Shown: positions 2,758 through 24,175 of the stretch, piece by piece
Numbering within the stretch: the first letter of the stretch is position 1
Layout of the letters: every line of letters begins with the position of its first letter
From: Longimicrobiales bacterium
Lineage (GTDB): Bacteria; Gemmatimonadota; Gemmatimonadetes; Longimicrobiales; Gaopeijiaceae
Reading direction: 5' to 3'
NCBI GenBank assembly: GCA_965116905.1
Contig: OZ220732.1
Location: forward strand, 4,096,001 to 4,160,000
Length of the DNA stretch: 64,000 nucleotides
Translations under genes and position numbers: made by a program
The notes under the pieces: model-generated
Seen by the model: only the letters and a program-made list of their open reading frames with translations
The model's database searches: none
What the model was told of the DNA's origin: nothing

Positions 2758-4668
2758 ATGAAATACTCCCGCCCCGTGGCCACGGCCCTGGCCGCGCCCG
2801 CCACCACCGCCGCCCTCCCCCTCGTTACGCTGTCTGCGCTCTCCGCCCTCGCACTCGCGCTCCTCGCGCTCCCCACCCCCGCCACCGCCCAGACCGGCCC
2901 CGTCATCGAGAATGGCCAGGCCCAGGTCGTCCCCGCCTTCGCTGATTCGGCCACGTGGATCCGCCACGACCTCTGGGTCGAGACCGAGTTCGACACCGAC
3001 GGCGACGGCCGGCCCGACCGCGTGCACGTCGCAGTCACCCGCCCCGGCCAGACGGACACCGAGGGGCTCACCGTCTCCGTCATCTACGAGACCAGCCCCT
3101 ACTACTCCGGCGTCGCCGGCATCGACTTCGACCACTTCTGGAACCTGCGACAGGAGGTGGGCAGCGATCCCCCGGCACGCGACCCCTTCCCCGCCACCAT
3201 CCGGCACATCGAGCGCCAGCCGGTCATCTCCAACTCGCACATCCGCACGTGGGTGCCCCGCGGCTTCGCGGTCATCCACTCGCAGTCCCCCGGCACCGGC
3301 CAGTCGCAGGGCTGCCCTACCGTCGGCGGCGAGAACGAATCGCTCGCGCCCAAGGCCGTCATCGACTGGCTGAACGGGCGTGCACGCGGGTTCACCACCG
3401 TCGACGGCAGCGAACAGGTCGAGGCCTACTGGAGCACCGGCAAGGTCGGCATGACCGGCACCTCCTACAACGGCACCCTGCCCCTGGCCGCCGCGACCAC
3501 CGGCGTCGACGGCCTCGAAGCGATCATCCCCGTCGCGCCCAACACGTCCTACTACCACTACTACCGCTCGAACGGCCTCGTCCGCTCGCCCGGCGGCTAC
3601 CCCGGCGAGGACATCGACGTCCTCTTCGACTTCATCTTCAGCGGCTACCCTGACGTGCGCGACTATTGCATCGCCCACGTGCGCGACGAGATGTACGCCG
3701 AACTCGACCGCACCACCGGCGACTACAACGATTTCTGGGCGGGCCGCGACTACCTGAACCACATCGACGGCGTCCGCGCCGCCACCCTCATGGCCCACGC
3801 CTTCAACGACTGGAACGTGATGCCCGAGCACAGCTACCGCATCACCGAGGCGCTGAAAAGCCGCGGCGTCCCCGTCCAGATCTACTACCATCAGGGCGGC
3901 CACGGCGGTCCCCCGCCCCTCGAGCTCATGAACCGCTGGTTCACCCGCTACGTCCTGGGCGTCGAGAACGGCGTCGAGAACGACCCGCGCGCATGGATCG
4001 TCCGCGAGGCCGACGACCGCCAGCAGCCCACCGCCTACCCCGACTATCCGCACCCCGAGTCCGACGGCGTCCGCCTGCATCCCGCGGGCGACGGCAACTG
4101 GACCGGAACCCTCTCGCTCAACGCCGGCGACGCGGACGGTACCGGCGGCATTGTGGACAATTTTGCTTTTGAGGGCGGCCAACTCGCCGCGGCGGAATGG
4201 TCGAACCACCGGCTTCTATATGCGACACCGTTGCTCCAGCAGGATGTTCACCTTTCGGGCGTGGCCACGGTCCGCGTGCGCGTGGCCTCCGATGCAGCCG
4301 CGGCGAATCTGACCGTCTGGCTCGTCTCGCTCCCCTGGACCGACGGCGGCGACATCAACGACAACGTCATCACCAAGGGCTGGGCGGATCCGGCCAACGC
4401 GGGCGCGGACAACATCGCGAGCCCGCGGTCCGGCACCGACCTCACGCCCGGCGAGTTCGTCGAACTCGAATTCCCGCTGCAGCCGGACGATCAGGTGATC
4501 CCGGCAGGGGCGCGGATCGGGCTGATGGTGTTCTCGAGCGACAAGTACTTCACGTTGCACCCGGAGCCGGGGACGGAGCTGACCGTGGATCTGCGCGGGA
4601 CGAGTGTGGAGTTGCCGGTGGTGGGGGGTGTGGAGGCGTTGAGGAGGGCGCTCAGGCCGGTGAGTTGA
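2758..4668 (+). CDS. Xaa-Pro dipeptidyl-peptidase (S15/CocE-NonD family), exported
   Basis: Signal peptide ending ATA-Q; VETEFDTDGDG, AVIDWLNGRA, nucleophile GTSYNG, DWNV, QGGHG; PepX-like C-terminal domain. Alternative start 2728. Confidence 0.88.
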   Translation: MKYSRPVATALAAPATTAALPLVTLSALSALALALLALPTPATAQTGPVIENGQAQVVPAFADSATWIRHDLWVETEFDTDGDGRPDRVHVAVTRPGQTDTEGLTVSVIYETSPYYSGVAGIDFDHFWNLRQEVGSDPPARDPFPATIRHIERQPVISNSHIRTWVPRGFAVIHSQSPGTGQSQGCPTVGGENESLAPKAVIDWLNGRARGFTTVDGSEQVEAYWSTGKVGMTGTSYNGTLPLAAATTGVDGLEAIIPVAPNTSYYHYYRSNGLVRSPGGYPGEDIDVLFDFIFSGYPDVRDYCIAHVRDEMYAELDRTTGDYNDFWAGRDYLNHIDGVRAATLMAHAFNDWNVMPEHSYRITEALKSRGVPVQIYYHQGGHGGPPPLELMNRWFTRYVLGVENGVENDPRAWIVREADDRQQPTAYPDYPHPESDGVRLHPAGDGNWTGTLSLNAGDADGTGGIVDNFAFEGGQLAAAEWSNHRLLYATPLLQQDVHLSGVATVRVRVASDAAAANLTVWLVSLPWTDGGDINDNVITKGWADPANAGADNIASPRSGTDLTPGEFVELEFPLQPDDQVIPAGARIGLMVFSSDKYFTLHPEPGTELTVDLRGTSVELPVVGGVEALRRALRPVS

Positions 4669-6848: not shown

Positions 6849-7309
6849 GCTCGAAGGATGTGGTGACGATCAAGGGATTCGCCAAGGAGGTTGGCCGAGA
6901 CATCTTCAGCCGTTACAGGGAAGGGTTTGACGAGGGCCGCGAGAGCGCCCATGCGGTCGGCCTCGTGACAGGCCGCGAGAGCATCGTCCACGCGCTGACT
7001 GCCACTCGGTTCGGCCCTGAAACGGCGGACCGCGTCGCCGAATTGACCAGGAGCCTTTGCGAGTGTGAGGACGGTTTCGGCATCAGCAGCGCAGATCGGA
7101 TCGGAATCTGCGTCCTGACCTGCGCCACCGCTGATGATCTCCTGGCGAGGGTACGGGAAGTCGAGGAGGAAGAGTCGAACCGGGCCCGTTGGTTCGAGGA
7201 CGATCCCAGGGCCGGATGGGCCGACGCGGCCCGCGACCTCGCGGCTCGACGCGATGACGGCCCTGAGGACGACCCGACTCCCACCGTCCTTGACGAGTCG
7301 GAAGGGTAA
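6845..7309 (+). CDS. Second Rpn C-terminal-like hypothetical protein
   Basis: GTG start overlapping the previous stop (GTGA); EGFDEGRE...RFGPETADRV...VLTCATADDLLARV, paralogous to the upstream ORF. Confidence 0.5.
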   Translation: MSSKDVVTIKGFAKEVGRDIFSRYREGFDEGRESAHAVGLVTGRESIVHALTATRFGPETADRVAELTRSLCECEDGFGISSADRIGICVLTCATADDLLARVREVEEEESNRARWFEDDPRAGWADAARDLAARRDDGPEDDPTPTVLDESEG

Positions 7310-9793: not shown

Positions 9794-10678
9794 TCAGTTG
9801 ACGGTCCGGGCGACGCGGAACCCCAACGCGAAGTTTCGGAAGTCTGCCGCCGATCCACGACGGTAGGCCGAACGCAGTTCGGTCGGATCGTGTAGCCATG
9901 AACCGCCACGCGTGATACGACGAGTACAATCTCCTCTGTACCACGAACTGCCGTCTGTCGGAGCACCCTCATAACTCCCGTTGGCGCAGTCATCGACCCA
10001 CTCCCGCACGTTGCCCAGGATATCGAAAACTCCAAACCCGTTAGGCCGGTAAGAACCTACAGGTGCGGAGTTTGGCTGCCGGTCACGACAACCAACCATG
10101 TCCCTGCCGAAACCGTGCTCGGCGTGTCCATTGGCATCGTATCCGTTGGCAAATTGACACTGCTCCCGATCCGTTTCTCCCCAGTATCGTGCCGTGCGAG
10201 TCCCCGCCCGCGCCACGTATTCCCACTCCGCCTCGCTTAGTAGCCGGTACTCCTCTCCCGTTTGTTCCGACAACCAGTCGGCATACAGCCACGCATCCTC
10301 CCAATTCACCCACACCACGGGCCGTCTACCTCTGCCCCAGCCCTGGTCATGCGGTTCGCGTCCGCCGCAGCCACCCCCTCGAACACACGCATCCCATTCG
10401 TCAAATGTGACTTCGTAGACTCCCACGGCGAACGCATAGTCGATAGTGACTTCGTGTTGCGGCCCTTCGTCGAAGTCGCGTCCTTCCTCCGTTTCCGGCG
10501 AGCCCATTGTGAAGGTGCCCGCCGGCACCACAATCATTCCCGGGCACACGTCGCAGTCGCGGAAGACCTCACCGACTTCCTGCGCCCCGGCAGGGGCGGC
10601 GAAGAGTACCAATGCGGCCAGTGCCACGACGCGGGTATTTACCGCAGGCTCCTGGCAACGCCTGAAGTCGGCGATCAT
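9794..10678 (-). CDS. Secreted FGE/SUMF1-family (CLec-fold) protein A
   Basis: Signal peptide AGA-Q; FRDCDVCP, YEVTFDEW, RLLSEAEWEY, NGFGVFDILGNVREW, RGGSW, GFRVARTVN. Confidence 0.9.
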   Translation of the reverse strand: MIADFRRCQEPAVNTRVVALAALVLFAAPAGAQEVGEVFRDCDVCPGMIVVPAGTFTMGSPETEEGRDFDEGPQHEVTIDYAFAVGVYEVTFDEWDACVRGGGCGGREPHDQGWGRGRRPVVWVNWEDAWLYADWLSEQTGEEYRLLSEAEWEYVARAGTRTARYWGETDREQCQFANGYDANGHAEHGFGRDMVGCRDRQPNSAPVGSYRPNGFGVFDILGNVREWVDDCANGSYEGAPTDGSSWYRGDCTRRITRGGSWLHDPTELRSAYRRGSAADFRNFALGFRVARTVN

Positions 10679-11490
10679 CGGACGCTCCGTGCAACACGGA
10701 AGCCGTAGTACTGGTGCCCTATAGTCGGATACCAGTTGCCACGGTGAGCCGAACGGAGTTTCGCCGGATCGTTGGCCGCGGATCCGCCCCGCAACACTCG
10801 ATAGGAGCAGTCGGATTCGGGTGGCGCAGCACTCCCGTCGTTCGGGGCATTCGAATAGCTGTCGTGCCAGCAGTCCTCAACCCACTCCCACACGTTGCCG
10901 AGCATGTCGTACAACCCAAAGGCGTTCGGGCGGAGTGACCCTACCGGCGCGGTATTCGCGTAGCCACCCGAACACGAAACGTCATCGTCATTCCCGTTCG
11001 CATGCGTGCACTGCTCCGCTTCACTGTCCCCCCAGTAGCGAGCGGTCTGCGTCCCCGCACGCGCCACATACTCCCACTCCGCCTCGGTCAACAGCCGATA
11101 CTCCTGGCGAGTCGCTCCAGAGAGCCAAGTCACGTATGCCTGAGCATCGTCCCAGCTCACATTGACGACCGGACGGTTCGCACGGCCCCACCCTTCATCC
11201 TCGGGAATCGCACCACCACAGCCCCCGTCCCACGCGCATGCATCCCACTCCTCGAACGTTATCTCGTAGACTCCCACCGCGAACGACTCGATCGACACGA
11301 CCCGGCGAGGACCCTCGTCGTCGCCCCTATCTTCCTCCATCTCCGGCGAGCCCATGATGAATCGGCCCGCGGGCACCACGACCATTCGCGGGCACACTTC
11401 GCAGTCCTGAAAAACCTCGTTGACTTCCTGCGCTTCCGCAGGGACAACCAGGAGTGCCAAAGAGGCTTGGGCCAAAATGCGAGCGATCAT
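10675..11490 (-). CDS. Secreted FGE/SUMF1-family protein B
   Basis: Signal peptide AEA-Q; same motifs as A; ends GFRVARSVR with ATGA overlap to gene A. Confidence 0.9.
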   Translation of the reverse strand: MIARILAQASLALLVVPAEAQEVNEVFQDCEVCPRMVVVPAGRFIMGSPEMEEDRGDDEGPRRVVSIESFAVGVYEITFEEWDACAWDGGCGGAIPEDEGWGRANRPVVNVSWDDAQAYVTWLSGATRQEYRLLTEAEWEYVARAGTQTARYWGDSEAEQCTHANGNDDDVSCSGGYANTAPVGSLRPNAFGLYDMLGNVWEWVEDCWHDSYSNAPNDGSAAPPESDCSYRVLRGGSAANDPAKLRSAHRGNWYPTIGHQYYGFRVARSVR

Positions 11491-11630
11491 CGGGAGTTCT
11501 TGGCAACGCGAAAACCCTGATCGCCGTTTTGGAAATCGCCTGGGTAGTCATAGCGTTCCGCTGAGCGGACTTCATTCGGAGCGTGGCGCCACTTGCTGCC
11601 ACGCCTAACGCGACGTGCGCAGTCTCCCAT
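11487..11630 (-). pseudogene. Orphan FGE C-terminal fragment C
   Basis: Manual translation MGDCARRVRRGSKWRHAPNEVRSAERYDYPGDFQNGDQGFRVAKNSR*; the stop overlaps the ATG of gene B. Confidence 0.75.
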
Positions 11631-11659
11631 GTAGCGGCCCATGCTGGTGTGGTGAGAGG

Positions 11660-14152
11660 CTATGTTGCCCTCCGGCGGTTCACGAGATGCGACACCACTC
11701 CGACCATAGCCGCTATCAACAAGGCCGCAAAGAGATGGTCAACAAACCATTTCCAGAACCGCGCCCACCAACTCATCATGTCTGAGCAGAGATTGCGCCG
11801 GATCTCTTTCCGAACCTTCGTTTCATCTGTCGCGCCCTGGCCGTGAATCACTAGTGCCGAGATCACAGTTTCTTCACGCTCCGGCCGCACATGATACGGC
11901 CGACAACCATTGTTGTCTTCTGCCTTCGACGCGCCCCCATCCAGACGCAAGAGCGTCAGGATCACGTCTTCGTCGCTCACCTTCATCGCGTGATGCAAGG
12001 GGATCCTTCCGGACAAATCTTCTTCCCTACTATCGAACCCTAGCTCGGTGCAAATCTTCACGGAAGTGGATGTAGCCTGCTTGAAGAATGCTTCGCTCGT
12101 CCACATTGGCACTGTCGTGCAGCGAAACCTAGCGCGCAGGGAAGCGCTCAGACTATCGTTGCCAGTCAAAGGTCCTTCACCATTTCCATTCTCAAATCTC
12201 AGCGAAGCGCCGGCTTCGACCAGAGCTTGAACCATATTCAAATGGCCGGCACGGAATGCAATGTGCAGAGGCGTGTCACCATCGGCATTGGTGGCATCGA
12301 CTGATACGTCGGTCTTCAGAAGGGAGCGGAGAGAGGCAAGGTTCCCTTCTTGAGCTGCTTCATGCAACGGATGCCGGGAAGATGCCCGACGAACTATGAT
12401 TCGGTAAGACCCGATGGCCTCTGTTGATGCCGAGTTGGCTAAGACAGTGTAGGACCCCGCTTCGGGCGCCCTGAAGGCAACCCTTGCATCCAGTCCACCC
12501 CCTCCGTCATCGTCGGACGCGATGGGTGTCCCGTTTCTCAGAACTACGAGGAAGGGATCGAAGTCAGACGATGTCATCTCTACTACTATGCTGTCGCCTT
12601 CCAAAGCGTTGTAGATCCAAGTGTCATATGGGGTTCCGTCAAGAGAGAGTTGCGCGTCACTTGGCGTCAGTTCACCCACTCCTGCACCGTCTGCTCGGAG
12701 CTCCGTCGGGAACCTGAGAGAAAGCACATAGTCACCTGTTTCCTCAGGATCTGCACTCGTCGCAGTGACCGTATAGCTGCCTGGTAACAGCGCGACTTGT
12801 AGCCAAGAATTCAAGGTCAGGCCTGGCCCCCCATCGTCGTCACTTGCGATTTCCACCGTGCTTCCCCGCAGACCCCGGGACAGTACCAGGTACGAGTCGA
12901 TCTCCTCGGAAGTCATCTCGATGATTACCATTCCGGAGTCGGCAATCTCGAACACCCATTCATCGAAATAGGAGCCGCGTGGCATGCGCGGGTCGTCAGC
13001 ACTCAAAGATCCACTATTGGGTTCGACGGGGCGAAGAGTGGACGGCGTTGATGACTCTACCGACCCGTCGCCATGTTGAACCGTCACTGTGATTCCATAA
13101 GACCCAGCGGCTTCTGTTGATACCGCGTTGGCCAAGATAGTGTAGGATCCCACTACAGGCGCCCTGAAGGCAACCCTTGCATCCAGTCCACCCCCTCCGT
13201 CATCGTCGGACGCGATGGGTGTCCCGTTTCTCAGAACTACGAGGAAGGGATCGAAGTCAGACGATGTCATCTCTACTACCATGCTGTCGCCTTCCAAAGC
13301 GTTGTAGATCCAAGTGTCATATGGGGTTCCGTCAAGAGAGAGTTGCGCGTCACTTGGCGTCAGTTCACCCACTCCTGCACCGTCTGCTCGGAGCTCCGTC
13401 GGGAACCTGAGAGAAAGCACATAGTCACCTGTTTCCTCAGGATCTGCACTCGTCGCAGTGACCGTATAGCTGCCTGGTAACAGCGCGACTTGTAGCCAAG
13501 AATTCAAGGTCAGGCCTGGCCCCCCATCGTCGTCACTTGCGATTTCCACCGTGCTTCCCCGCAGACCCCGGGACAGTACCAGGTACGAGTCGATCTCCTC
13601 GGAAGTCATCTCGATGATTACCATTCCGGAGTCGGCAATCTCGAACACCCATTCATCGAAATAGGAGCCGCGTGGCATGCGCGGGTCGTCAGCACTCAAA
13701 GATCCACTATTGGGTTCGACGGGGCGAATCTCGGACTGCGCAGCAACAGACGGTGAGCCGAGGGAGCTTGCCGAGGTCAGGACGATTGCCCACAGGAACT
13801 GCCACTGAAGTGAGCAACAGCTCAGGTGTGGTGGCAGGATGAGGCTCTTGTAACACGATCCAAATCGCTGTTCGCGGATTTTCTTCACCAACCGATCCCT
13901 TCGGCCCAACAAGGAGGATTCCCTGTCCCTTCCATCCATAGTATGGCTCACTCGGTTGCGCACAGTATCGCTCGCTCGGTCGAGCATCAGTTTCACGAAA
14001 GGCTTCGAATTGCGAGCCTGTGGTCGCCGTCGTTCTAAGTTCCATGGCATACGCCGGTCAAGTTGGGGGGCTCTACCCGAGCGCACAACCGTGTCGTTGC
14101 GGCCGTCTTCGTGCAAGTCTTTCCCGATGGTGTTTCGCTGGCCGTTGTTCAT
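11660..14152 (-). CDS. Protein with 4 PPC (pre-peptidase C-terminal)-like domains, ankyrin repeats and a C-terminal TM helix
   Basis: Four ASDDDGG-containing PPC-like units; ankyrin motifs HPLHEAA, GDTPLHIA, GRIPLHHA; hydrophobic C-terminus. ATG 14152 has RBS GAAGAGGG; the true start could be nearer the hydrophobic segment before AAQ. Visibly lower GC than the flanks. Confidence 0.7.
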   Translation of the reverse strand: MNNGQRNTIGKDLHEDGRNDTVVRSGRAPQLDRRMPWNLERRRPQARNSKPFVKLMLDRASDTVRNRVSHTMDGRDRESSLLGRRDRLVKKIREQRFGSCYKSLILPPHLSCCSLQWQFLWAIVLTSASSLGSPSVAAQSEIRPVEPNSGSLSADDPRMPRGSYFDEWVFEIADSGMVIIEMTSEEIDSYLVLSRGLRGSTVEIASDDDGGPGLTLNSWLQVALLPGSYTVTATSADPEETGDYVLSLRFPTELRADGAGVGELTPSDAQLSLDGTPYDTWIYNALEGDSMVVEMTSSDFDPFLVVLRNGTPIASDDDGGGGLDARVAFRAPVVGSYTILANAVSTEAAGSYGITVTVQHGDGSVESSTPSTLRPVEPNSGSLSADDPRMPRGSYFDEWVFEIADSGMVIIEMTSEEIDSYLVLSRGLRGSTVEIASDDDGGPGLTLNSWLQVALLPGSYTVTATSADPEETGDYVLSLRFPTELRADGAGVGELTPSDAQLSLDGTPYDTWIYNALEGDSIVVEMTSSDFDPFLVVLRNGTPIASDDDGGGGLDARVAFRAPEAGSYTVLANSASTEAIGSYRIIVRRASSRHPLHEAAQEGNLASLRSLLKTDVSVDATNADGDTPLHIAFRAGHLNMVQALVEAGASLRFENGNGEGPLTGNDSLSASLRARFRCTTVPMWTSEAFFKQATSTSVKICTELGFDSREEDLSGRIPLHHAMKVSDEDVILTLLRLDGGASKAEDNNGCRPYHVRPEREETVISALVIHGQGATDETKVRKEIRRNLCSDMMSWWARFWKWFVDHLFAALLIAAMVGVVSHLVNRRRAT
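12465..13728. repeat. Intragenic direct repeat, period 693 bp (12465-13035 vs 13158-13728)
   Basis: Direct comparison shows near identity, with one substitution noticed (Ile/Met codon); the adjacent ~55 bp are clearly diverged. Confidence 0.95.
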
Positions 14153-14394
14153 AGTACCCTCTTCACCGTAGTGGAACGTTGACAAAAGATGGTTGGGCTG
14201 GTCTTCTGACTCACGACACTGTGGAGTACCCAGGGGCTCCACGCCTCCAGCCGACGCTCTTCGATGCATCGCCGAAACCGCAGAATGTCGCCCCAGCCGT
14301 CACGGCCGATCAAGCGATCTTGGGCAGCTACCGAACGCGCGACGGCCAAGGCCGTCCCCGCCAAGGCAGCCAGCACTTCGGCGCGCGCAGTCAT
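14149..14394 (-). pseudogene. Probable truncated secreted ankyrin-type gene
   Basis: MTARAEVLAALAGTALAVARSVAAQ signal-like start, then RRCIEE...WVLHSVVSQKTSPTI resembling AECLEA...ILRHAAEWTRSPAV of the ankyrin protein at 18943. ATGA overlaps at both ends. Confidence 0.45.
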
Positions 14395-15251
14395 CGTACG
14401 CCCCGGGCAACACGAAACCCGATCCGAGGATGCTTCTCGCGCAATGGCCAAGTGCGAACAGCCGAGCGGAGTCTCCCCGGCGCATTGCCCCAGGAGCCGC
14501 CGCGAATCACACGACTAGAGCACTCGCCGGACTCGGATTCCCTGACGCTCCCGTCGTTCGGGGCGGCCGCATAGTCCTCTATCCAACAGTCCGCCGTCCA
14601 TTCCCAGACGTTGCCCAGGACGTCATGCAGCCCGAACCCGTTCGGTTGAAACGATCCCACCGGCGCCGCGTTCTCGTAGCCATCCGAGCACGAGAGGTCC
14701 TCGTCGTTCCCGTTGGCATATCGGCACTGATCCGCTTCACTGTCTCCCCAGTACCGGGCGGACTCGGTTCCCGCACGCGCCACGTACTCCCACTCCGCTT
14801 CCGACAAGAGGCGGTACTCGCGTCCGGTCGCTGCGGAGAGCCATGCGACGTACGCCATGGCGTCTTCCCAGTCCACGTTGATCACCGGACGGTTGGCCCG
14901 CCCCCACCCTTCGTCCTCGGGAATCGCGCCGCCACACCCCCCGGCCCACGCGCAGGCGTCCCATTCCTCGAAGGTCACCTCGTACACTCCGACCGCAAAC
15001 GACTCGATCGACACGACCCGACGAGGTCCTTCCATGTCATACAACCGGCCCTCCTCCGTCTCCGGCGAGCCCATGATGAAGCGGCCCGTCGGCACCACAA
15101 TCATCTCGGGGCAGTCGTCGCAGTCCCCGAACACCTCGCCGACCTGCTGGGCCACGGCCGATACGCCAGGAACCACCGCGCCGATCACCCACGGAAGGAA
15201 CCCGGCCGCTACCCCACACCCGAATCCGCAGAATCGCCAAGCCACCTTCAT
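14391..15251 (-). CDS. Secreted FGE/SUMF1-family protein D
   Basis: Signal AVA-Q; FGDCDDCPEM, RLLSEAEWEY, LGNVWEW, RGGSW, GFRVARGVR; most similar to protein B. Confidence 0.9.
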   Translation of the reverse strand: MKVAWRFCGFGCGVAAGFLPWVIGAVVPGVSAVAQQVGEVFGDCDDCPEMIVVPTGRFIMGSPETEEGRLYDMEGPRRVVSIESFAVGVYEVTFEEWDACAWAGGCGGAIPEDEGWGRANRPVINVDWEDAMAYVAWLSAATGREYRLLSEAEWEYVARAGTESARYWGDSEADQCRYANGNDEDLSCSDGYENAAPVGSFQPNGFGLHDVLGNVWEWTADCWIEDYAAAPNDGSVRESESGECSSRVIRGGSWGNAPGRLRSAVRTWPLREKHPRIGFRVARGVR

Positions 15252-15445
15252 GTACATCTCCATCTCGTCGGTATTGTATAGTCCTGACCACTCCGCGCCG
15301 CCACACCGACAAGGGCCGCTATCGCCGCACGGGTTGGTGACTCTGCCCCGGCGTTCAAGACCATAGGCGGCAATCATGGGAACCCAATTCGATGCCGCGC
15401 AAGCGCTTTCCTACACCGTCAACCGGCGCCGGATTGCTGACGTGT

Positions 15446-15536
15446 GATCGCCCGGCGGCCTGGATGACTGGAATATTGGTCGCATAAGTCACTTGTGCAT
15501 ATTATTGTCAGCATTGGGGGCCCGAACTTGGGTCAC
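15446..15536. promoter_or_regulatory. Conserved AT-rich upstream element, copy 1
   Basis: Aligns with 19916-20005; exact core ACTTGTGCATATTAT at 15491-15505; lies upstream of the FGE operon. Confidence 0.65.
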
Positions 15537-15628
15537 GAGCGCCCAGATCGCGGATATCTCCACCCGTTGAGCGCAAAACCCACAAGTCCCCCCCGATACA
15601 ACGAAGCGCCTCCAATTGAGCGAGGCCC

Positions 15629-16302
15629 GGATCGTCCGCGAGGCCGACGACCGCCAGCAGCCCACCGCCTACCCGGACTATCCGCACCCCGAGGCCGAGG
15701 GCGTCCCCCTGCATCCCACGGGCGACGGCAACTGGACCGGCACCCTCTCGCTCAACGCCGGCGACGCGGACGGTACCGGCGGCATTATGGACAATTTTGC
15801 TTTTGAGGGCGGCCAACTCGCCGCGGCGGAATGGTCGAACCACCGGCTTCTATATGCGACACCGTCGCTCCAGCAGGATGTTCACCTCTCGGGCGTGGCC
15901 ACGGTGCGCGTGCGCGTGGCCTCCGATGCAGCCGCGGCGAATCTGACCGTCTGGCTCGTCTCGCTCCCCTGGACCGACGGCGACGACATCAACGACAACG
16001 TCATCACCAAGGGCTGGGCGGATCCGGCCAACGCGGGTGCAGCGGACATCGCGGCTCCGCGGTCGGGCACCGACCTCACGCCCGGCGAGTTCGTCGAACT
16101 GGAGTTCCCGCTGCAACCGGACGACCAGGTGATCCCGGCGGGGGCGCGGATCGGGCTGATGGTGTTCTCGAGCGACAAGTACTTCACGGTGCACCCGGAG
16201 CCGGGGACGGAGCTGACGGTCGATTTGCGGGGGACGAGCGTGGAGTTGCCGGTGGTGGGGGGCGTGGAGGTGTTGAGGAGGGCGTTTAGGCCAGTGAGTT
16301 GA
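15629..16302 (+). pseudogene. Duplicated 3' third of the Xaa-Pro dipeptidyl-peptidase gene
   Basis: Colinear with 3995-4668 (offset 11634) and near-identical; lacks the catalytic Ser region. Confidence 0.9.
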
Positions 16303-16315
16303 GGGGGGAGGCAGA

Positions 16316-17447
16316 ATGACCACGTTGATCCGGCGGGCGGGCTTCCTCGGCACACGGTTTCGCCTGTCCCTGCTCGTCGTGACAGCGGCGTGCACCGATG
16401 GCCCGGATCAGGCATCCGGTCCGGGCGCCACAACGGTCCGAGACAGCGCGGGGATCCGGATCGTGACCAGTGAGGGGCCACGATGGGGCGCCGGTGAAGG
16501 GTGGACGGTCATCCCCGAGCCGGATCTGGTCATCGGTGACGAAGACCCGATGGGCGGCGGAACGGACACCCTCTTCGGATCGATTCGGGCCATGGTGGTG
16601 CTGCCGAGCGGACGCTTTGCGGTAGCGGACGAACACTCGGCTGTCATATCCGTGTTCGACCCCCATGGGCAGCTCGTCCACCGCTTTGGGGGCCATGGAG
16701 AAGGGCCCGGAGAAGTTGGCGGCGTCTGGGATCTGTACGGCTGCGCCGGGGACACGGTCATCGTGCGCTTTCGCACCGAGCTGAGCTTCTTCGACGGCGA
16801 CGGCCAGTTCATCCGCCGCATCAACTGCGCGGGTGCGGGCACGACCTGGGCGCTCGCGGCGATAGCGCCCGACTGCAGGCGCTTCGTGGCTTCGCACAGT
16901 ACCGGCGGATCGGCCCCGCCGGCAGGTCAGGAGTGGTTGCTGCCCAGCGTGCTCGTGTACACTGACGATGACTTCGTGGCCACCGACACCATCGCCCGGG
17001 AGGTGACAGGCGAGGGGTTCACGGGTTCACTGCGAGGAGAGGATGTCTTTGTGGCGCTACCCTAGACTCCGGTCGACGCCAACGTGGAACTCAGGGGCGA
17101 CCAGCTGGTTGCGGGATTCGGGCGGTGGGCGGAGTTCCGGATCCGTTCCCTTGGCGGGCACCTCGTGCAGCTGATCCGCTGGCACGCCACTCCCGAAGAG
17201 GTCACGGACGCCGACCGCGACCGCTACATGGACAAGCGCGACGAGTCCGCCTCGCGACCCTGCCCCGCCCGAGACCTGGACGGTCCTCGATTCAGCGGGT
17301 GTCTGGCTGGGGCCCGTGCACCTGCCCGACGGATTCGCCGTCCACGAGGTGGCGAACGGGCGGGTGTACGGCGTTCACACCGCGCCGCTCGGAGCCCAGA
17401 CCGTCAGGGTTCATCGGCTTGTGGACCCCCATTCGGCCAGCGGCTGA
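16316..17447 (+). pseudogene. Disrupted paralogue of the beta-propeller lipoprotein at 5066-6355
   Basis: TGG to TAG at 17063-17065, and an ~173-bp frameshifting deletion corresponding to 5994-6166. Confidence 0.9.
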
Positions 17448-17461
17448 GTTTCTTGCCAGGC

Positions 17462-18034
17462 TCAGGATGCCGGGGGTAGCTGGCCCGCCGCGCGCGGTTC
17501 GTTGAGCCTTTGTTCAAAATCCGCTATGCGTCGGTAGTTGGGGCGTGTCTGATCCTGTATCAGGCCCTTGAGGTACTCATCTTCGAACGGAAGCATGGTA
17601 GCAAGGTGACCGGCGACCATATTATTGGTAGCGGGTGGAAGCAGGTCACGGAAGTACAGGTCGCAGGCCGCTGCCGTGACGTCCGACAGCCTCTTCGCAC
17701 TGGTATGGAATTTGAATTTCCTACCCATGTCAGCCTTTTGCTCTTTTTGCTCTTGCAAGTAGCCGCGGTGCGCTTGGTCAAGCCTGTCAGCCAGCCGAAG
17801 GTATGTGTCTACATCCGTTGAACTGGTGTGTTGCTCCAGGGCTGCGAAACTGACCATCACCGCGAGCAACACAGCTATGTGCGCCAACGCCTGGAGGAGA
17901 TCCAGCATGTCGGGGCGCGCCACGCGCACTCCAAGGAGCGGTAACTGCGGCCAGATAGCCGCCACCAATCCCAACACCGCAACAACCAGTGCCACCAAGA
18001 GTATTACGGCAGCCGTCTTTGCAAATCGGGTCAT
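17462..18034 (-). CDS. Hypothetical membrane protein (2 N-terminal TM helices plus helical domain)
   Basis: Strong RBS GGAGG; two hydrophobic segments; lower GC. Confidence 0.6.
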   Translation of the reverse strand: MTRFAKTAAVILLVALVVAVLGLVAAIWPQLPLLGVRVARPDMLDLLQALAHIAVLLAVMVSFAALEQHTSSTDVDTYLRLADRLDQAHRGYLQEQKEQKADMGRKFKFHTSAKRLSDVTAAACDLYFRDLLPPATNNMVAGHLATMLPFEDEYLKGLIQDQTRPNYRRIADFEQRLNEPRAAGQLPPAS

Positions 18035-18103
18035 GTTGGATACCCTCCTACGTTACCAGGTGTAACCGTGAGCGGCGTGTCGCCGTCTTGATCTCGCGGG
18101 CAG

Positions 18104-18946
18104 TCATCGGACGCTCCGGGCGACCCGGAATCCGAAGTGGGGACTCCGGTTACTGGCGTCGCCCCTGAGCCGGCGGGCCGAACGGAGGTCGTTCGGACCG
18201 TCGTAGAACCCACCACCCCGCACCACACGGTAGTCACAATCGCCGGCGTACGATGAAAGTCCATTGGTGGGAGCATCGTCGTAGCTGCCATAGCAGTCAT
18301 CCACCCATTCCCACACGTTCCCCAGGGCATCGTAGAGCCCGAACCCATTCGGTCGGTAAGTGCCTACTGGTGCCGGACCCTCCTGCCTGTCCCGGCAGCC
18401 GACGCTGCTGTCGCCGTTGGCATACTCGCACTGCTCGCGCGTCCCATCCCCCCAGTACCGCGCCGTCTGAGTCCCGGCCCGCGCCACGTACTCCCACTCC
18501 GCCTCGCTCAGCAGCCGGTACTCCTCCCCGGTTCGTTGGGTGAGCCAATCCGCGTACTGCCACGCATCCTCCCAATGCACTTCGGACACAGGACGCCTGC
18601 CGCGGTCGGTCAAAACAATCGGCTCGTAACCACCGCATCCGCCCCCCTGCACACATGCGTCCCACTCATCGAACGTGACTTCATACACGCCCACGGCGAA
18701 CGAATAGCCAATGGTGACTCGCCGCTGAGGCCCTTCGCGATCCCGCCGCCCTTCCTCCGTCTCCGGCGAACCCATGATGAAGCTCCCCGCTGGTACCACG
18801 ACCACCTCAGGGCACATGTCGCAGTCCCGGAATACCTCGCCCACTTCCTGGCCCGCAGCTGACCGTGTCGGCATCAAGCACCCAATCACCGTCAGCGCGA
18901 ACAATCCTGCCAGTCCTCCCCACCGGGGCGTTCGCAATCGGCTCAT
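18104..18946 (-). CDS. Secreted FGE/SUMF1-family protein E
   Basis: ATGA-coupled to the ankyrin gene; AAG-Q signal; FRDCDMCPE, RLLSEAEWEY, GFRVARSVR; most similar to protein A. Confidence 0.9.
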   Translation of the reverse strand: MSRLRTPRWGGLAGLFALTVIGCLMPTRSAAGQEVGEVFRDCDMCPEVVVVPAGSFIMGSPETEEGRRDREGPQRRVTIGYSFAVGVYEVTFDEWDACVQGGGCGGYEPIVLTDRGRRPVSEVHWEDAWQYADWLTQRTGEEYRLLSEAEWEYVARAGTQTARYWGDGTREQCEYANGDSSVGCRDRQEGPAPVGTYRPNGFGLYDALGNVWEWVDDCYGSYDDAPTNGLSSYAGDCDYRVVRGGGFYDGPNDLRSARRLRGDASNRSPHFGFRVARSVR

Positions 18947-19755
18947 GGCTCCCTGGCCCCCGCTTCCCGAAGCATGCGCACGATGGTGTCTCGCTCGGAT
19001 CCGTAGCACGACTCGGCGACCTCGAGCGGCGTCTGATCGAGACCCCTCGTCGCGTTCGGGTCCGCTCCATACTCCAGCAGCACGCGCACGAGAGGCTGTC
19101 TGCACCTGTCGATGGCGACGTGTAGCGGCGTCCCAAGAGTGGTCTTCGCGTTCGGATCGGCGCCGACTGCGAGCAGAGCTTCCAGCACCAGCGGATTCGT
19201 TGTGTTCTCAGCTGCATGGTGCAACGGAGTCACCAGTCCCCAGGATCCACTGGGATCGGCACCCGCGTCGAGGAGCAGTTCGACCAGTGCGATGCTGTTG
19301 GGCTGATTGCCCAGGACGTGGTAGAGCGGCGTGTAGCCGAAGCGATCCGGGCCCAGGTCCGCGTTTGCGTAGAGCAGTGCAGCCACCACACCGTGAACGA
19401 CTGTCGCGTTGTCCGTGCGCTGAACCGCCCAGAATAGCGGGCTCTCCACCCCCCCGATGGGGTTCGGGTTCGCCCCGGCCCTCAGCAGCATCTGAACCAC
19501 GGCGGGGGAGCGCGTCCACTCGGCCGCATGTCTCAGGATTCCCTGTGCATTCGGATCGGCGCCGGCTTCAAGACACTCGGCGATGTGGACGGGTCTCGCC
19601 TCGTTCCACCAGGTCTCCAGGAACCGCGTGTCCCGCCTCCACGGATTGGACCCATTGGGGTCGCACACGGGATTGTCCGGGCTCTGCGCGGCGGCGGGTG
19701 CAGCGGTCAGGGCCGCAAGTGCCAGGGTGGCTAGAGCTGCGGCGCGGACGATCAC
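18943..19755 (-). CDS. Secreted ankyrin-repeat protein
   Basis: GTG start; AAA-Q signal; repeated GADPN and TPLH motifs. Confidence 0.88.
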   Translation of the reverse strand: MIVRAAALATLALAALTAAPAAAQSPDNPVCDPNGSNPWRRDTRFLETWWNEARPVHIAECLEAGADPNAQGILRHAAEWTRSPAVVQMLLRAGANPNPIGGVESPLFWAVQRTDNATVVHGVVAALLYANADLGPDRFGYTPLYHVLGNQPNSIALVELLLDAGADPSGSWGLVTPLHHAAENTTNPLVLEALLAVGADPNAKTTLGTPLHVAIDRCRQPLVRVLLEYGADPNATRGLDQTPLEVAESCYGSERDTIVRMLREAGAREP

Positions 19756-19915
19756 GGGATGCTGCGGGCGACGCGGAAGTCGATTGAAGCCCATTGCTGT
19801 TCGGCCCTCCAGTCGCAATGGTAGCGGATGTGTTTCGAGCCATCATGGCAGTCAGAATCAATGCTGCGCAAACGTCTCCGGAGGCGCCCAACTGGCAACA
19901 CACTCCCCGACCTGG

Positions 19916-20005
19916 GATCGCCCAGCGATCCGTATGACTGAAATAATGTGCGCACGCTCTACTTGTGCATATTATCGTCAACATTATCATCCGAACCTGG
20001 ATCAC
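19916..20005. promoter_or_regulatory. Conserved AT-rich upstream element, copy 2
   Basis: Aligns with 15446-15536; core ACTTGTGCATATTAT at 19961-19975. Confidence 0.65.
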
Positions 20006-20255
20006 CGGCTTGGCGACGACAGGCATCCTAAACCCCTTGGGCGCCAAGCTTTCCAGTCCTCCGCCGACCGACGGAGCACCCCCGTCTGAGCGAAAAATGC
20101 GCGATGACATCCGGAGAGACCGACGACCATAGGCAGCGTCACAATGGGGTGAGCGGTGGCGTACACTTGGCGCCCTGGTTCGGCTTCAGCGGATTCCGGG
20201 TCGCGCGCACTGTCAATTGACTCGTGCGCCGACCGGCTGGCGGCCACCGCGCCCG

Positions 20256-21443
20256 CTACCTGCCAATCGACTGACCCACCAGATCGCAGTCCCTCACACT
20301 CACACCACTCTCGCGCATCACATCGTACCACGACGACTGTACGATCCCGGAGATCCTGTCGAAGATGGCTTCGGCCGCCACTCGGTCCAGCAGGAACCGC
20401 CCCGCTCCAGCGACGATATTCTCACGACTCGGAGCACGGCCGTCTGGACCGCAGATCATGGTGAAATCGCGACGCTTGTCACCCGCCAACGGTGTTGGTA
20501 CCGGGGCAGAGGCAGGCGCGAGACGCCAGCCAGTGCCCTTTGCGACCATCATGGGGTGGCGCGGATTGTCCGTGAGACACGAGATGGCGACGTTGAAGCA
20601 AATGCGCCCAAAGAGCTCGCGCAGGTCCTCCCTGGGGTGTGAACTCACCCTTCGAACCCGGTCGGCCAATGTCAGGTATGACCAGCCATGCTTCGTGGCC
20701 GGTGCAGAGTCCATGCCGAGCAGCGTAAAGCCGCTGATCAAACGGCTGCAGGCATAGCCAGCGCCCACCCAGCTTCGGTCGTAGCGTCGCACCATCAGGA
20801 CGTCTTCGCCGTGGGCGCTCTCGATTCGGCTGGGAACGGCATCAAGGCCGCAGTTCCGTGCAAGCTGCAGTGTCGCGTGGCGGACACGGTTCTGGTTCCA
20901 TATCATGCCGTCCCGCGGGAATTTCGCTATCCAGAGTGTGCGATCATCTTCAACCGTCACCTTGGGTGCGTTTGCCCCAGGGACCTCGTGACCTCCACGG
21001 AGAGCATCATCGAGAGGTGCGTCCTGCACAACGTGGCCCCGGTCGAAGGCCGCCTTGAGGCCGGTCAGGTCGTCAACGGTGGGGAAGTGCAGCCTTGGCA
21101 CGGGAGGGTCGAGTCCGAGAGCGAACGCGACCGCGCCACCGTAGTCGCTCGGACTCTTCACCACATCCGGAGTGCTTCCTCCTCCGATGAACCGGCCCCA
21201 TGAAGAGGGTATGGTGTCTCGCATCGCGCCGAAGACACCGCCGACGCTTCCCTTGCGAACGCGCCGGGTGAGTCGGAGGTGAACAGGGTCAAGTTCGACC
21301 GCGTCCGCGCGGCTGAGATAGCTGCGGCCGTAGATGAATTCTCCGAGTGGTGCGTCGCCGGACACGCGGAAACGCCCGGCCACCACATAGCGGCTCTGTC
21401 CGGGAAGAGCCACAAAAACAAACCGGTCGAAATCAGAAGTCAT
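20256..21443 (-). CDS. hipA: HipA-family protein with degenerate kinase motifs
   Basis: FIYGRSYL, GANAPK, WIAKFP, RRYDR, SYLTLAD, ELFGRICFN, WRLAP; overlaps the upstream HTH gene. Confidence 0.8.
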   Translation of the reverse strand: MTSDFDRFVFVALPGQSRYVVAGRFRVSGDAPLGEFIYGRSYLSRADAVELDPVHLRLTRRVRKGSVGGVFGAMRDTIPSSWGRFIGGGSTPDVVKSPSDYGGAVAFALGLDPPVPRLHFPTVDDLTGLKAAFDRGHVVQDAPLDDALRGGHEVPGANAPKVTVEDDRTLWIAKFPRDGMIWNQNRVRHATLQLARNCGLDAVPSRIESAHGEDVLMVRRYDRSWVGAGYACSRLISGFTLLGMDSAPATKHGWSYLTLADRVRRVSSHPREDLRELFGRICFNVAISCLTDNPRHPMMVAKGTGWRLAPASAPVPTPLAGDKRRDFTMICGPDGRAPSRENIVAGAGRFLLDRVAAEAIFDRISGIVQSSWYDVMRESGVSVRDCDLVGQSIGR

Positions 21444-21786
21444 CGCGGAGCGGTTGGAGGCGCGGGGCCTGACTCGGGAAGCGGGCGGACTCCAGAATCT
21501 TGCCCTCTTCGTCACGGTCCGGGTCGGCCAGGTGGTCCGCGTCGGCAAGCAGACCCAGTGCCCACAAGACCCCGAAGTAGGCCGCTGCCGACACGCCCGG
21601 CTTCCCGTTCTCCACATTGGCGACCGTGGAGCGGGAGGCGCCGATGCGGTCGGCGATGTCCTGGATCCGCAGCCGTCGCCGCAAGCGGGCGGTGCGGAGG
21701 TTGTCGCCAAAGCGCCGTAGGGTGTCCGAGACTTCGCCCGGCGGGCTGGTGCTGATCGTGGCGCGAGTTGGGCTCCCGTTGCTCAT
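21433..21786 (-). CDS. XRE-family HTH protein (HipB-like antitoxin)
   Basis: LRTARLRRRLRIQDIADRIGASRSTVANVENGKPGV...YFGVLWALGL; directly upstream of hipA. Confidence 0.85.
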   Translation of the reverse strand: MSNGSPTRATISTSPPGEVSDTLRRFGDNLRTARLRRRLRIQDIADRIGASRSTVANVENGKPGVSAAAYFGVLWALGLLADADHLADPDRDEEGKILESARFPSQAPRLQPLRDDF

Positions 21787-21976
21787 CCGTCCCACCACGT
21801 GATGAAGAGGGTATGATTGTCTGCACGACATTGACGCAACAATATCGCGATAGTTCCACGACAGCAATCCCGACGCGATGGCCGTCTGGCCGACCAATCC
21901 CCACCGTCCTGGACGAGTCGGAACAGGCTCGCGCTTAGACCTGCCGCGACAGCCGAACCGCCGCCGCGCCGCCCCT

Positions 21977-24175
21977 CTACCGCCGCCCCTCCGTCGCCAC
22001 CGCCCCGTCACCCCCCATGTAGCGGTCGAAGAAGTCGTCCGTTGCATCGAAGGTGATCAGCCAGCGCTCGTGCAGCAGGAAGTCGTGCACGTCGTCCGGG
22101 AACACGATCAGCTCGTGCGGCACGCCCTGCGCGCGGAGCAGCTGCACCAGCCCCACCGTCTGCGAAAACGCCACGTTGCGGTCGTCGTCGCCGTGGATCA
22201 GCAGCACCGGTGACGTCCAATTCTCGACCTCGGCCACCGACGACGACTGGTAGGACACCGTCTCCGGGTCGATCGAGTTCCCCCACAGGTGCACGCCGGC
22301 GATGTCGACGCCCGCCGCGAACAGGTCGGAGTCCCGCGCCAGGCCCTGCGCCGTGAGAATCCCCCCGTACGAGAGCCCCCAGAGTCCGATCCGGGCCGCA
22401 TCCACGTCGTCGCGGTCGCGCAGATACTCGCCGGCCGCCTTGATGTCGCGGTATTCGGTGTTGCCCAGGCGCCCGCGCCCCGGCGCGTTACGGAACTCGC
22501 GGCCGTACCCGATACCGCTCCGGTAATTCACCGACAGCACCACGTAGCCCTTGTTCGCGAAGTACTGATTCATCGCGTAGGCCATGTGGTAGAAGTGCAT
22601 GTAGTGGTAGCCGAGCAGCATCTGCCGCCGGGACCCGCCGTGGATGAAGATCATCGCGGGCCGCTTCTCGCCGGGCTGCAGGTCGGGGGGCAGGAAGAGC
22701 TGGTTGTAGAACTCGAAGCCGTCCTCGGCCTCGAGCGTGACCGCCTCGGGCATGACGTGCTCGTCGAAGGGGTAACGCGCCGGCAGATCCCGGATCGTCC
22801 GCGCCTCGCCGCCGTCCGCAGGGACCACCGCGACGGTCAGCGGCTGGCGGGCGTCCGCGTACAACACCGCCACGTCGCGTCCCGACGCCAGCGCGGCCGG
22901 GTAGGTCTCGATGCCGTCGCCGTGGGTGAGCTGCCGCGCGTCGCCGCCCGACGTGGGCACGCGCCACAGGTGGCGGCGGTCGATGTCGCCCGCGTTGGTC
23001 GCGTAGAAGAGGGTGCGTCCGTCCGGCGAAAGCGAGATGTATTCCGCGATGCCATCGCCCGGCGTGAGCTCCGCGGGGGTGGCGGGTGCGCCGGTGAGCC
23101 AGCCCGCGCCGTTGGCCGTGCCGCCCGAAGCCGCCACCGAGTAGTACCGCCGCCACCCGTCCGGCTCGGCCTGGAAGATGATGTGGTCGCCCGCCCAGAT
23201 CACCGAGCGCACTTCGCGGTGGATCTCGTCACCGGCCGCGTTGTGCCACACCTCGCGCGCCTCGCCGGTGCCCGCGTCGCCGACCCAGATCGAAAAGTCG
23301 TAGCCACCCGCGAACCGCGCCTCGGTCATGCCGTCGGGCAGGTCGTCCGGGCTCGCCTCGCCCAGGTCGGCCCGTGCCCCGAAGGGCAGCCCCGGCCTGC
23401 GGATGAAGGCGACCCGCGTGCCGTCGGGGGACCAAGTCGGGCTGGCGTCGCGGTCCACGGCCGGTCCCAGATAGGTGATGCCGGGGTTGTCGGTGTCGTA
23501 GACGCCGATGAAGCTGTGATCCTCGCGGTCGCTCACGAAGGCGATTCGGCGCGAGTCGGGAGACCACACCGGGCTGCCCTGACTGCCGAAGACGCTGAAG
23601 AGGGGCCTCTCGGGCTCGGTCGTCACCACGCCAGGGTTCACCGGCGCGCGGTAGATCGCCCCGTCCCTCGCGTACGCGACCCACTCACCGTCGGGCGACA
23701 GCGCCACGTTCCACGCCTCGACGACCCGCCAGGGCTCGCCGCCCGCCGTGCTCACCGCCCACACCGCGCGCTCGGCGCCGCGTGGGTCGCTGGCCGGGTT
23801 CGCGATCCATCCCTCGCGGTTCGGCGTGTGGCCCCGCAGGAAGACCAGTGTCGAGCCGTCGTCGGAGATGCGCAGGTTCGACAGATCGCGCCCGTCATCG
23901 TCCTCGTAGCGCGTGAGCCGCACGGGCTCGAAGCCGGGAGCCGTCGCCGTATAGACGTTGCGCCGCCCTTCCTCGTACTCGATCCACGCGATGCGGTCGG
24001 CCGCCTTCGCCGCGACCAGCTGGACCGGGTAGCCGGGACTGAGCACATCCTCGATCGAGAAGCGCTGGGCCTGCACGGGTGGGGCGGTGAGCGCGACGGA
24101 GAGCACGACGGCGAGCGCGGCCAGGGCGAGCACGGCGAGGGCGCGAACGGGGACGAAGACGGTGCGGCGCTTCAT
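21977..24175 (-). CDS. S9 prolyl oligopeptidase/DPP IV-like peptidase, exported
   Basis: Signal VQA-Q; WSPD propeller repeats; GLSYGG, HGDDDRNV, DVHDF catalytic triad. Confidence 0.92.
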   Translation of the reverse strand: MKRRTVFVPVRALAVLALAALAVVLSVALTAPPVQAQRFSIEDVLSPGYPVQLVAAKAADRIAWIEYEEGRRNVYTATAPGFEPVRLTRYEDDDGRDLSNLRISDDGSTLVFLRGHTPNREGWIANPASDPRGAERAVWAVSTAGGEPWRVVEAWNVALSPDGEWVAYARDGAIYRAPVNPGVVTTEPERPLFSVFGSQGSPVWSPDSRRIAFVSDREDHSFIGVYDTDNPGITYLGPAVDRDASPTWSPDGTRVAFIRRPGLPFGARADLGEASPDDLPDGMTEARFAGGYDFSIWVGDAGTGEAREVWHNAAGDEIHREVRSVIWAGDHIIFQAEPDGWRRYYSVAASGGTANGAGWLTGAPATPAELTPGDGIAEYISLSPDGRTLFYATNAGDIDRRHLWRVPTSGGDARQLTHGDGIETYPAALASGRDVAVLYADARQPLTVAVVPADGGEARTIRDLPARYPFDEHVMPEAVTLEAEDGFEFYNQLFLPPDLQPGEKRPAMIFIHGGSRRQMLLGYHYMHFYHMAYAMNQYFANKGYVVLSVNYRSGIGYGREFRNAPGRGRLGNTEYRDIKAAGEYLRDRDDVDAARIGLWGLSYGGILTAQGLARDSDLFAAGVDIAGVHLWGNSIDPETVSYQSSSVAEVENWTSPVLLIHGDDDRNVAFSQTVGLVQLLRAQGVPHELIVFPDDVHDFLLHERWLITFDATDDFFDRYMGGDGAVATEGRR

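Follow-up and report, generated by a model that had tools for sequence, protein, structure and literature searches.

A probable stockpile of former retroelement targets, coupled to ankyrin genes, in a Longimicrobiales bacterium

Introduction

We analysed a 64,000-nucleotide stretch of DNA (hereafter the window) from a Longimicrobiales bacterium (assembly GCA_965116905.1, contig OZ220732.1, positions 4,096,001 to 4,160,000), in which an array of genes for proteins of the formylglycine-generating enzyme (FGE) type of C-type lectin (CLec) fold is interspersed with ankyrin genes. The genome that holds the window, here called G000, is a single contig of 4.2 Mb and is 97% complete; other genomes bear G-numbers, and the loci fetched from them L-numbers. 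The loci most similar to that of the window come from Longimicrobiales or other Gemmatimonadota. The lineage of G000 likely lives in sponges: related short pieces occur in a sequencing run labelled sponge metagenome, and such lineages are known as sponge symbionts. We report that the tips of the array genes carry the footprint of a diversity-generating retroelement (DGR), and that no DGR machinery was found in G000 or in 52 relatives of its genus. The explanation we prefer, with reasonable rather than high confidence, is that the array is a frozen stockpile of former DGR targets, in which homologous recombination shuffles genes retained for the exported binding proteins they encode.

Results

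Anatomy of the array

The genes and other elements of the array are as follows.

9794..10678, minus strand: FGE/CLec gene A, with a variable tip at about 9794-9930 carrying an eroded DGR footprint
10675..11490, minus strand: FGE/CLec gene B, with an orthologue in the G063 array (91% amino-acid identity)
11487..11642, minus strand: orphan FGE 3' end of about 55 codons, with variable region and GFRV motif, behind the low-GC PPC-ankyrin gene
11660..~13891, minus strand: 4xPPC-ankyrin gene, GC 56%, with a C-terminal hydrophobic helix
14149..14394, minus strand: ankyrin stump of a second ankyrin gene type, an N-terminus with a signal-like start and zero repeats remaining
14391..15251, minus strand: FGE/CLec gene D, whose clade combines a conserved body with a highly divergent tip
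15290..15620, minus strand: conserved non-coding leader, copy 1, with a TTGACA-like hexamer and a palindrome of the type GCACAAG-N3-CTTGTGC
18034..18107, minus strand: ankyrin micro-stump, its start codon frameshifted onto a single ankyrin motif
18104..18946, minus strand: FGE/CLec gene E, sharing 62% identity with the target gene of the intact G109 DGR
18943..19755, minus strand: full ankyrin gene ANK1, with a signal-like N-terminus
19752..19841, minus strand: decayed orphan FGE tip of about 30 codons, directly behind the leader
19845..20113, minus strand: conserved leader, copy 2
20170..20226, plus strand: DGR-target 3'-end remnant of about 17 codons on the opposite strand, with four NNC codons, a GFRV motif and the beginning of a stretch that resembles an initiation of mutagenic homing (IMH) sequence

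The first-pass annotation, drawn up from the letters of the window alone, had recognised here four full FGE genes of two subtypes (A with E, B with D), one full ankyrin gene, two ankyrin stumps and a PPC-ankyrin gene. All of these are present, the four FGE genes each matching PF03781, and our tree separated A and E from B and D with support of 99/98. The three orphan FGE tails that it listed also proved real: a matrix built from the three ends scored 33-46 bits at them and gave 0 matches above 15 in 2 Mb of shuffled sequence, and the tail at 20220 lies on the plus strand, opposite to the rest. The proposed translational coupling within two runs of genes was borne out by ATGA or GTGA stop/start overlaps at 7/9 junctions, the exceptions being that from the PPC-ankyrin gene to the tail and that from the stump to a predicted membrane protein. 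The PPC-ankyrin gene contains an internal duplication of 693 bp at 97.5% identity; its start is uncertain, the open frame extending to 14269, and it was not found at the relatives' fetched loci. The tip at 19752..19841 appears to be the leftover of a former first gene after an internal deletion, and the plus-strand remnant reached E 0.053 against an IMH model.

Both runs lie behind the same upstream element, as had been claimed: the two leader copies of the window are 75% identical over 77 bp, and the similarity covers about 300 bp when relatives are aligned. Across 53 genomes (G000 and 52 genus relatives, many of them single-contig), we found eight leader copies in four genomes, conserved at 77-80%, all in arrays and immediately upstream of an FGE gene or tail. 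The leader gave no Rfam match at E≤0.1 and contains no sigma-70 consensus; judged from its sequence, it is a putative promoter. Its palindrome could be an operator. One repeat (79% over 33 nt) flanks the leader. The idea that the opposed tails (19752 and 20220) enclose an invertible promoter is unsupported, the inverted tail flanking the leader in 0/6 other aligned copies. By inspection, the signal-like N-termini consist of a hydrophobic stretch and a small-residue site before Gln, and on this hydropathy and motif pattern the array proteins are probably exported.

An adenine-specific footprint in the tips

A template search of 401 genomes of the order returned two matches, one of them in G109, a genome of the same family and another genus. 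G109 carries a complete DGR (C2:3093.9-3096.7 kb, L165) with target, bAvd, reverse transcriptase (RT) and template repeat (TR), which is present in 1/19 genomes of its genus. The target differs from the TR at 14/28 adenines and at 4/80 other bases and is followed by a GC hairpin; in L077, like G109 a positive control, mismatches fell on 14/30 adenines and 0/66 other bases. Two or more further targets with hairpins lie elsewhere in G109, remote from the DGR (L168, L169), and the DGR itself has an Rpn-like gene as its neighbour. A template-pattern match in G293 lacked an FGE target and was discarded.

The positions at which we tested the array genes were the 11 codons that read AAC in the G109 template, that is, they were set by an independent template, and the pattern itself had first been noticed in the same genes that were later tested. 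The expectation was calculated from the genes' own codon use in 17 array genes, one per clade. At these positions 57/81 codons of four-fold boxes ended in C or T compared with 31.5 expected, and none of 200,000 simulations reached 57; the four window genes alone gave 11/16 where 6.7 were expected (p=0.024). Neither control showed an excess, with 23/70 (26.5 expected) at other tip positions and 104/293 (115 expected) at equally variable columns of the gene bodies. Among 69 distinct Gemmatimonadota tips the variable columns end in C or T, four-fold codons included, and tip columns cycle through R/W/G (NGG) and L/I/V/F (NTC), as AAC, AGG and ATC template codons predict. By their sequence, then, the array genes have the C-terminal CLec variable region with an adenine-specific pattern that marks predicted DGR targets.

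Fossils of the retroelement and absence of its machinery

G000 itself holds a fossil at C1:1860.2-1861.8 kb (L003:7196-8800), where a long FGE gene (C1:1860.2-1861.5 kb) is followed by an IMH, a GC hairpin and then a truncated avd gene (stump at C1:1861683-1861790). The tip of this long paralogue shows seven non-A changes relative to the G109 template. The fossil lies near a broken integrase gene and restriction-modification-like genes. A further fossil stands behind the leader in the pepX array of G054, where one array member combines an E-type body with a long-type tip, an IMH, a hairpin and an avd stump. Hairpin-bearing targets occur in six genomes of the genus among the fetched loci. When the tips were removed, the window genes, the long targets and the G109 target formed one group (FastTree SH 93, 35 selected rows). 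In this fossil series the most eroded members are the window genes, with 15-21 non-A changes and the hairpin gone.

The machinery was sought by several routes. PF00078 had 0 matches in G000, and the G109 RT as query, which finds itself in G109, found no DGR RT in the 53 genomes at E 1e-40. RVT_1 matches occurred in 34/53 genomes and were mostly intron-like proteins of ~470 aa; the 26 RT loci examined had neither template nor target tip, except for one with a single-copy FGE gene 5 kb away. The bAvd family (PF22296) was found in 0/53 genomes, the only traces being the stumps in G000 and in the G054 array. Template patterns matched 0/53 genomes, and 0/51 genus genomes with three mismatches allowed, while an nhmmer scan of G000 for the template found only the ten gene ends. 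A DGR in G000 using the orphan tails as templates was rejected, there being no RT and the tails not being AAC-rich. The FGE target family, by comparison, is present in 32/53 genomes at E 1e-70. One relative, G010, has 27 FGE-subfamily matches, many with intact hairpins and including one duplicated block (C1:27-54 kb and 4082-4096 kb; L018, L019, L032); its two listed RTs are of the 471-aa intron-like kind.

Outside the genus, intact Avd and RT genes adjoin 5/77 related FGE loci from other groups or phyla, among them two Alphaproteobacteria and a Ca. Poriferihabitaceae; their Avd and RT are 59-76% and 72-82% identical, respectively, to those of G109. A related TR with RT lies on a viral contig (L164). 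Of two metagenome template scans the first gave 0 matches and the second 42, which shows only that the template type is widespread. At two Latescibacterota loci (L089, L115) an FGE target is accompanied by an avd stump while 6 kb around it hold no RT; the orphaning of DGR targets may have occurred in this other phylum as well.

A conserved scaffold under purifying selection

Genes A, B, D and E encode zero cysteines between RGG and LRSA. Alignment to the T. curvata FGE confirmed the earlier observation that the cysteine pair of true FGEs is absent: the catalytic stretch is missing from the window genes, and with it the two catalytic cysteines after RGGS that define the enzyme. The model of gene E (pLDDT 93.8) has the FGE/CLec fold, with TM scores of 0.91 to PvdO, 0.79 to TvpA and about 0.77 to FGE. 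PvdO is the best match in fold and in sequence (37% identity, E 8e-45); against the PvdO family model NF051459, gene A scored 224 bits and gene E 200 bits, where the cut-off is 500, and no pyoverdine gene context was found near the array. The array FGE proteins are likely to be non-catalytic, though PvdO shows that a cysteine-less FGE fold can be an enzyme.

Sequence diversity clusters between RGG and GFR. The ratio of non-synonymous to synonymous differences (pN/pS) in clade D was 0.21 for the body and 0.63-0.78 for the tip, and body values were 0.19-0.22 in all four clades; the gene bodies are under purifying selection. ANK1 is conserved at 81-92%. A complex prediction for the gene E protein with ANK1 scored 0.00, which is evidence neither way.

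A hotspot between pepX and an S9 peptidase gene

The array lies between a pepX-like peptidase gene and an S9 peptidase gene, in the company of the following features.

2758..4668, plus strand: pepX-like peptidase, left border of the hotspot, whose 3' end recurs as fragments within arrays
15629..16302, plus strand: partial second pepX 3' end, 94.7% identical to the intact gene
16316..17423, plus strand: broken second beta-propeller copy, about 80% nucleotide identity to the gene at 5066-6355
17462..18034, minus strand: predicted membrane protein of 190 aa, with its own ribosome-binding site, uncoupled
20256..21798, minus strand: hipB-hipA-like pair
21977..24175, minus strand: S9 peptidase, right border of the hotspot

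The gap at 15.6-17.4 kb between the two runs consists of the second pepX 3' end and the beta-propeller copy, the counterparts of both lying at 4.0-6.4 kb. The first-pass annotation, sound in describing an array of binding proteins, had not mentioned this second copy and had overlooked the likely DGR origin of the genes. The 190-aa membrane protein matches zero Pfam or NCBIfam families; it is single-copy in G000 and was not seen in the relatives' fetched loci.

The FGE subfamily was found in 19/24 genus relatives and in 0/16 genomes of two other families. We compared the stretch downstream of pepX in 20 genomes, selected because their pepX genes are highly similar. In 18 of them the distance from pepX to the S9 gene could be measured, and it ranged from 93 to 23,103 bp. 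FGE genes lie at the hotspot in 6/20 genomes and form multi-gene arrays in four (G000, G021, G054, G063); the remaining 14/20 have no FGE gene there, and in G005 the site is empty. Whether cassette order varies among relatives had been proposed as a check on the array, and it does: the four arrays have four different orders. Extra pepX fragments with differing left ends were detected by protein search in 5/6 FGE-bearing hotspots and 0/14 others, and in G068 a 63-bp pepX DNA match lies next to an FGE-gene fragment. From these pepX fragments we infer that blocks entered by single crossover or homology-anchored recombination. A site-specific att site at the pepX 3' end was rejected because the fragment ends differ.

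G000 has a second array at C1:3576.4-3579.4 kb (L001), made up of a D-like gene, ANK1 (88%), an E-like gene (86%) and a truncated ankyrin gene of the second type; its neighbours are McrBC-like genes, named by inspection, and part of a tRNA-like sequence that ARAGORN does not call. A third FGE/ankyrin pairing in this genome, at C1:2197.7-2200.3 kb (L002), lies in an island that carries an integrase and has its FGE gene downstream of an ankyrin-PPC gene. At the hotspot of the window we also saw a Big_2 and GH113-like gene (7582-9503, below cut-off), apparently split near its 3' end, and two short open reading frames (6498-7309) that resemble Rpn C-terminal pieces by eye. Rpn/YhgA-like genes lie on the S9 side of the hotspot in 8/20 genomes (e.g. 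L014:15075-16085), and hipBA-like pairs of two types occur in or beside the arrays of G000, G021, G063, G054 and G002.

Breakpoints and exchange between species

The five full ANK1 copies that lie behind FGE ends have five different upstream partners, and an E-like FGE gene follows ANK1 in 6/6 full copies, a pairing that may reflect function or plain co-inheritance. Identity around the ANK1 junction was 0.77-0.95 within ANK1 and 0.73-0.88 over the last 33 nt upstream, and fell to 0.43-0.56 before that. Since most downstream genes, whether FGE or ankyrin, start with similar first codons, about 75 bp of homology spans the junction. Third positions of the GFRVAR/ATGA junction vary freely, with the top codon at 34-89% compared with a body mean of 57%, and no tyrosine recombinase (PF00589) was found in the window; serine recombinases were not searched for. 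The nearest neighbour also changes inside FGE genes (gene A, G063 9403, G054 15781): compared with L017, the first third of gene A is 78-80% identical and the rest 90-94%. The expectation that breakpoints fall at FGE 3' ends therefore held for many of them and failed for those within FGE genes. Homologous recombination explains the partner switches better than a dedicated site.

Exchange between species was seen in G021 and G063, whose array-bearing island is 99.3% identical over 17.6 kb while identity on its flanks is 94% for pepX and 92% for the S9 gene; the island has therefore moved recently between these two species. Within the species of the window we found no sign of ongoing change. Contigs assembled from two sequencing runs, each of a different study, showed 0 differences to the window in the tips they cover, namely those of A, B and D in both runs and that of E in one; the assembly may itself derive from one of these runs, and rare variants are lost from contigs. 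Hi-C data yielded 11 partial reads, which were set aside, and the joints seen in this comparison came from paralogues or other organisms. The earlier description of a birth-and-death array of probably exported, probably non-catalytic binders is thus supported, with gene order differing between species; its claim of active reshuffling applies between species, and the two independent runs speak against it over the tips covered.

Discussion

In the explanation we prefer, a DGR family of several phyla would have diversified the ancestral targets, as indicated by the footprint and by the fossils in G000 and the sister array, with adenine-specific retrohoming likely rewriting the C-terminal tips. 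RT, Avd and template would then have been lost, in keeping with the genomes searched, leaving targets with IMH, hairpins and avd stumps. The variants that were kept would have lost their N-terminal extensions and hairpins and become coupled cassettes with signal-like leaders; the short array genes would have lost the hairpin because the next gene overlaps the stop. The differences in order point to a further step in which RecA-type recombination, at the ~75-bp stop/start junction and within conserved FGE blocks, would have swapped partners and tips, with orphan tails and stumps as its scars. Identity and fragment ends suggest that a piece of pepX serves as homology anchor when blocks are taken up into the pepX-S9 hotspot, and such blocks may move between species. 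Selection would then keep the scaffold, and differences in the tip would give the proteins different binding specificities at the cell surface or in the periplasm. DGR proteins bind through the CLec tip, and we therefore predict an extracytoplasmic ligand for each cassette, differing from one cassette to the next. The ligand may be a molecule of a host, a phage or a neighbour, with candidate roles in host interaction, as a phage decoy or in neighbour sensing. In excerpts of PMC8195603, FGS domains are described as DGR-diversified sensors.

Several observations weigh against this explanation. The footprint of the window genes on their own is marginal, and it is eroded, with 15-21 non-A mismatches of about 66 relative to the best template; the base-by-base comparison covered 56/68 tips, gene D and other indel tips being excluded; and the pooled p-value overstates the case because related genes are not independent. 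No hairpin lies 3' of any of the four window genes, so that they lack the IMH with GC-rich hairpin of DGR targets. The FastTree support of 93 for the common group is below the tool's mark, and the nearest solved structure, PvdO, is an enzyme. Tip pN/pS is below 1 and thus gives no sign of positive selection. The apparent mosaics were identified by comparing, segment by segment (40 codons each), which gene is the nearest neighbour.

A wider reading of the same evidence, which we regard as possible though rather doubtful, is a receptor repertoire shared by a community. A DGR passing through co-habiting phyla would write the tips and then leave or be deleted; hairpin-bearing targets would await the next visit, and useful tips would be recombined into exported FGE-ankyrin operons and traded between species. 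The G054 array member would be a transfer caught midway, and because tips are traded, lineages would gain DGR diversity without carrying a DGR.

Among the rivals to our preferred explanation, the one that survives best, though we think it improbable, grants the DGR origin and regards the array as unselected debris decaying at a recombination hotspot, its proteins being of no further importance. The many stumps, the frameshifted copies and the broken propeller gene would fit such debris, as would the empty site of G005 and the 14/20 genomes with no FGE gene there, but all four clades have a body pN/pS of about 0.2, the proteins retain their cysteines and signal-like N-termini, and the conservation of ANK1 and of the leader, whose eight copies are all in arrays, also argues for selection. 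A smaller chance still attaches to targets that remain active, mutated in trans by a DGR that either sits on a plasmid or phage missing from the assembly or visits occasionally. Hairpin-bearing targets in six genomes of the genus, with 5-8 non-A mismatches to the G109 or L077 template, one of them inside the pepX array of G054, and the TR with RT on a viral contig are what this idea would lead one to expect. Machinery was nevertheless found in 0/53 genomes, the window genes have no IMH-hairpin and many non-A changes, and tips were identical in contigs of two studies, although contigs drop rare variants.

Two further alternatives are very unlikely in our judgement. In the first, a site-specific cassette system of integron or shufflon type would recombine at the GFRVAR/ATGA junction. 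The clustering of partner switches ≤33 nt from the stop, the common first codons of FGE and ankyrin genes and the one tail inverted relative to the leader could all be so explained; free variation at junction third positions, mosaics inside genes, differing pepX fragment ends and the lack of a tyrosine recombinase in the window (where serine recombinases were not searched for) count against it. In the second, to which we give about the same low weight, the array proteins would be periplasmic, cysteine-less FGE-fold oxidoreductases with different substrates. Like PvdO of Pseudomonas (PDB 5HHA; NF051459), to which they are closest in fold and sequence, they would be exported FGE folds without the FGE cysteine pair; unlike PvdO, they fall far below the family cut-off, are multi-copy with hypervariable tips, the residues lining the tip being the most variable, and have neither pyoverdine context nor biosynthetic genes nearby. 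Least probable is a poly-immunity locus against neighbours' secreted toxins, which the first-pass annotation had entertained: the tandem, same-strand, tightly spaced genes, the strain-variable content and the ankyrins (listed as Imm-ank) do resemble polyimmunity loci as described in PMC3482391, but none of the mapped loci showed a recognisable polymorphic toxin next to an array, "FGE" and "formylglycine" have 0 occurrences in the first 300,000 of the 357,715 characters of that paper, and the DGR footprint accounts for the variation.

The closest known systems are multi-target DGRs with FGE-type CLec targets, such as TvpA of Treponema denticola (PDB 2Y3C) and the eight-target cluster of Stenotrophomonas sp. 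SKA14 (PMC6602519, in part). The array shares with them the fold, the C-terminal variable region with an A-to-N footprint, the IMH and GC-rich hairpin on some members, and paralogues both clustered and dispersed. Unlike in those systems, RT, Avd and TR number zero in G000 and its 52 relatives, the window genes have no hairpin, ATGA overlaps join them to one another and to ankyrin genes, and their variation comes from recombination. The array thus works like what a multi-target DGR produces, yet with RT, Avd and TR missing it is not itself a DGR. Cyanobacterial CLec paralogues of DGR targets, described in portions of PMC7517822, are likewise dispersed with remnant TR-VR (variable repeat) homology, and its authors suggest that diversification parts are lost once a good variant has been selected. 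Those cyanobacterial genomes keep a DGR, however, and their proteins are mostly cytosolic kinase fusions, whereas here the whole sampled genus lacks the machinery and the proteins have a single domain and are predicted to be exported.

Clustered targets and DGR transfer are already known (PMC6602519 and bioRxiv 10.1101/2023.09.22.558884, as far as the excerpts go). Our literature searches, which covered subscription journals thinly and excluded supplements, found no paper on DGR-less CLec/ankyrin arrays in Gemmatimonadota. What is new here is the genus-wide absence of the machinery beside large target repertoires, with continued purifying selection and a graded fossil series, together with the coupling to predicted exported ankyrins and recent transfer across species. 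DGR surveys start from the reverse transcriptase, according to the relevant part of PMC6602519, and therefore miss a lineage in which 32/53 genomes bear targets and 0/53 bear machinery.

The array offers a concrete case for the question of what becomes of DGR variants after they have been made. Here they appear to have been kept under selection, made into predicted exported, ankyrin-partnered operons and exchanged between species. Fixed natural variants of one scaffold, with an intact cognate DGR in a sister genus, provide the material for testing this. For these likely sponge-associated bacteria, ankyrin and hypervariable lectin-fold proteins, two kinds of predicted binder, would be linked in the same transcription units.

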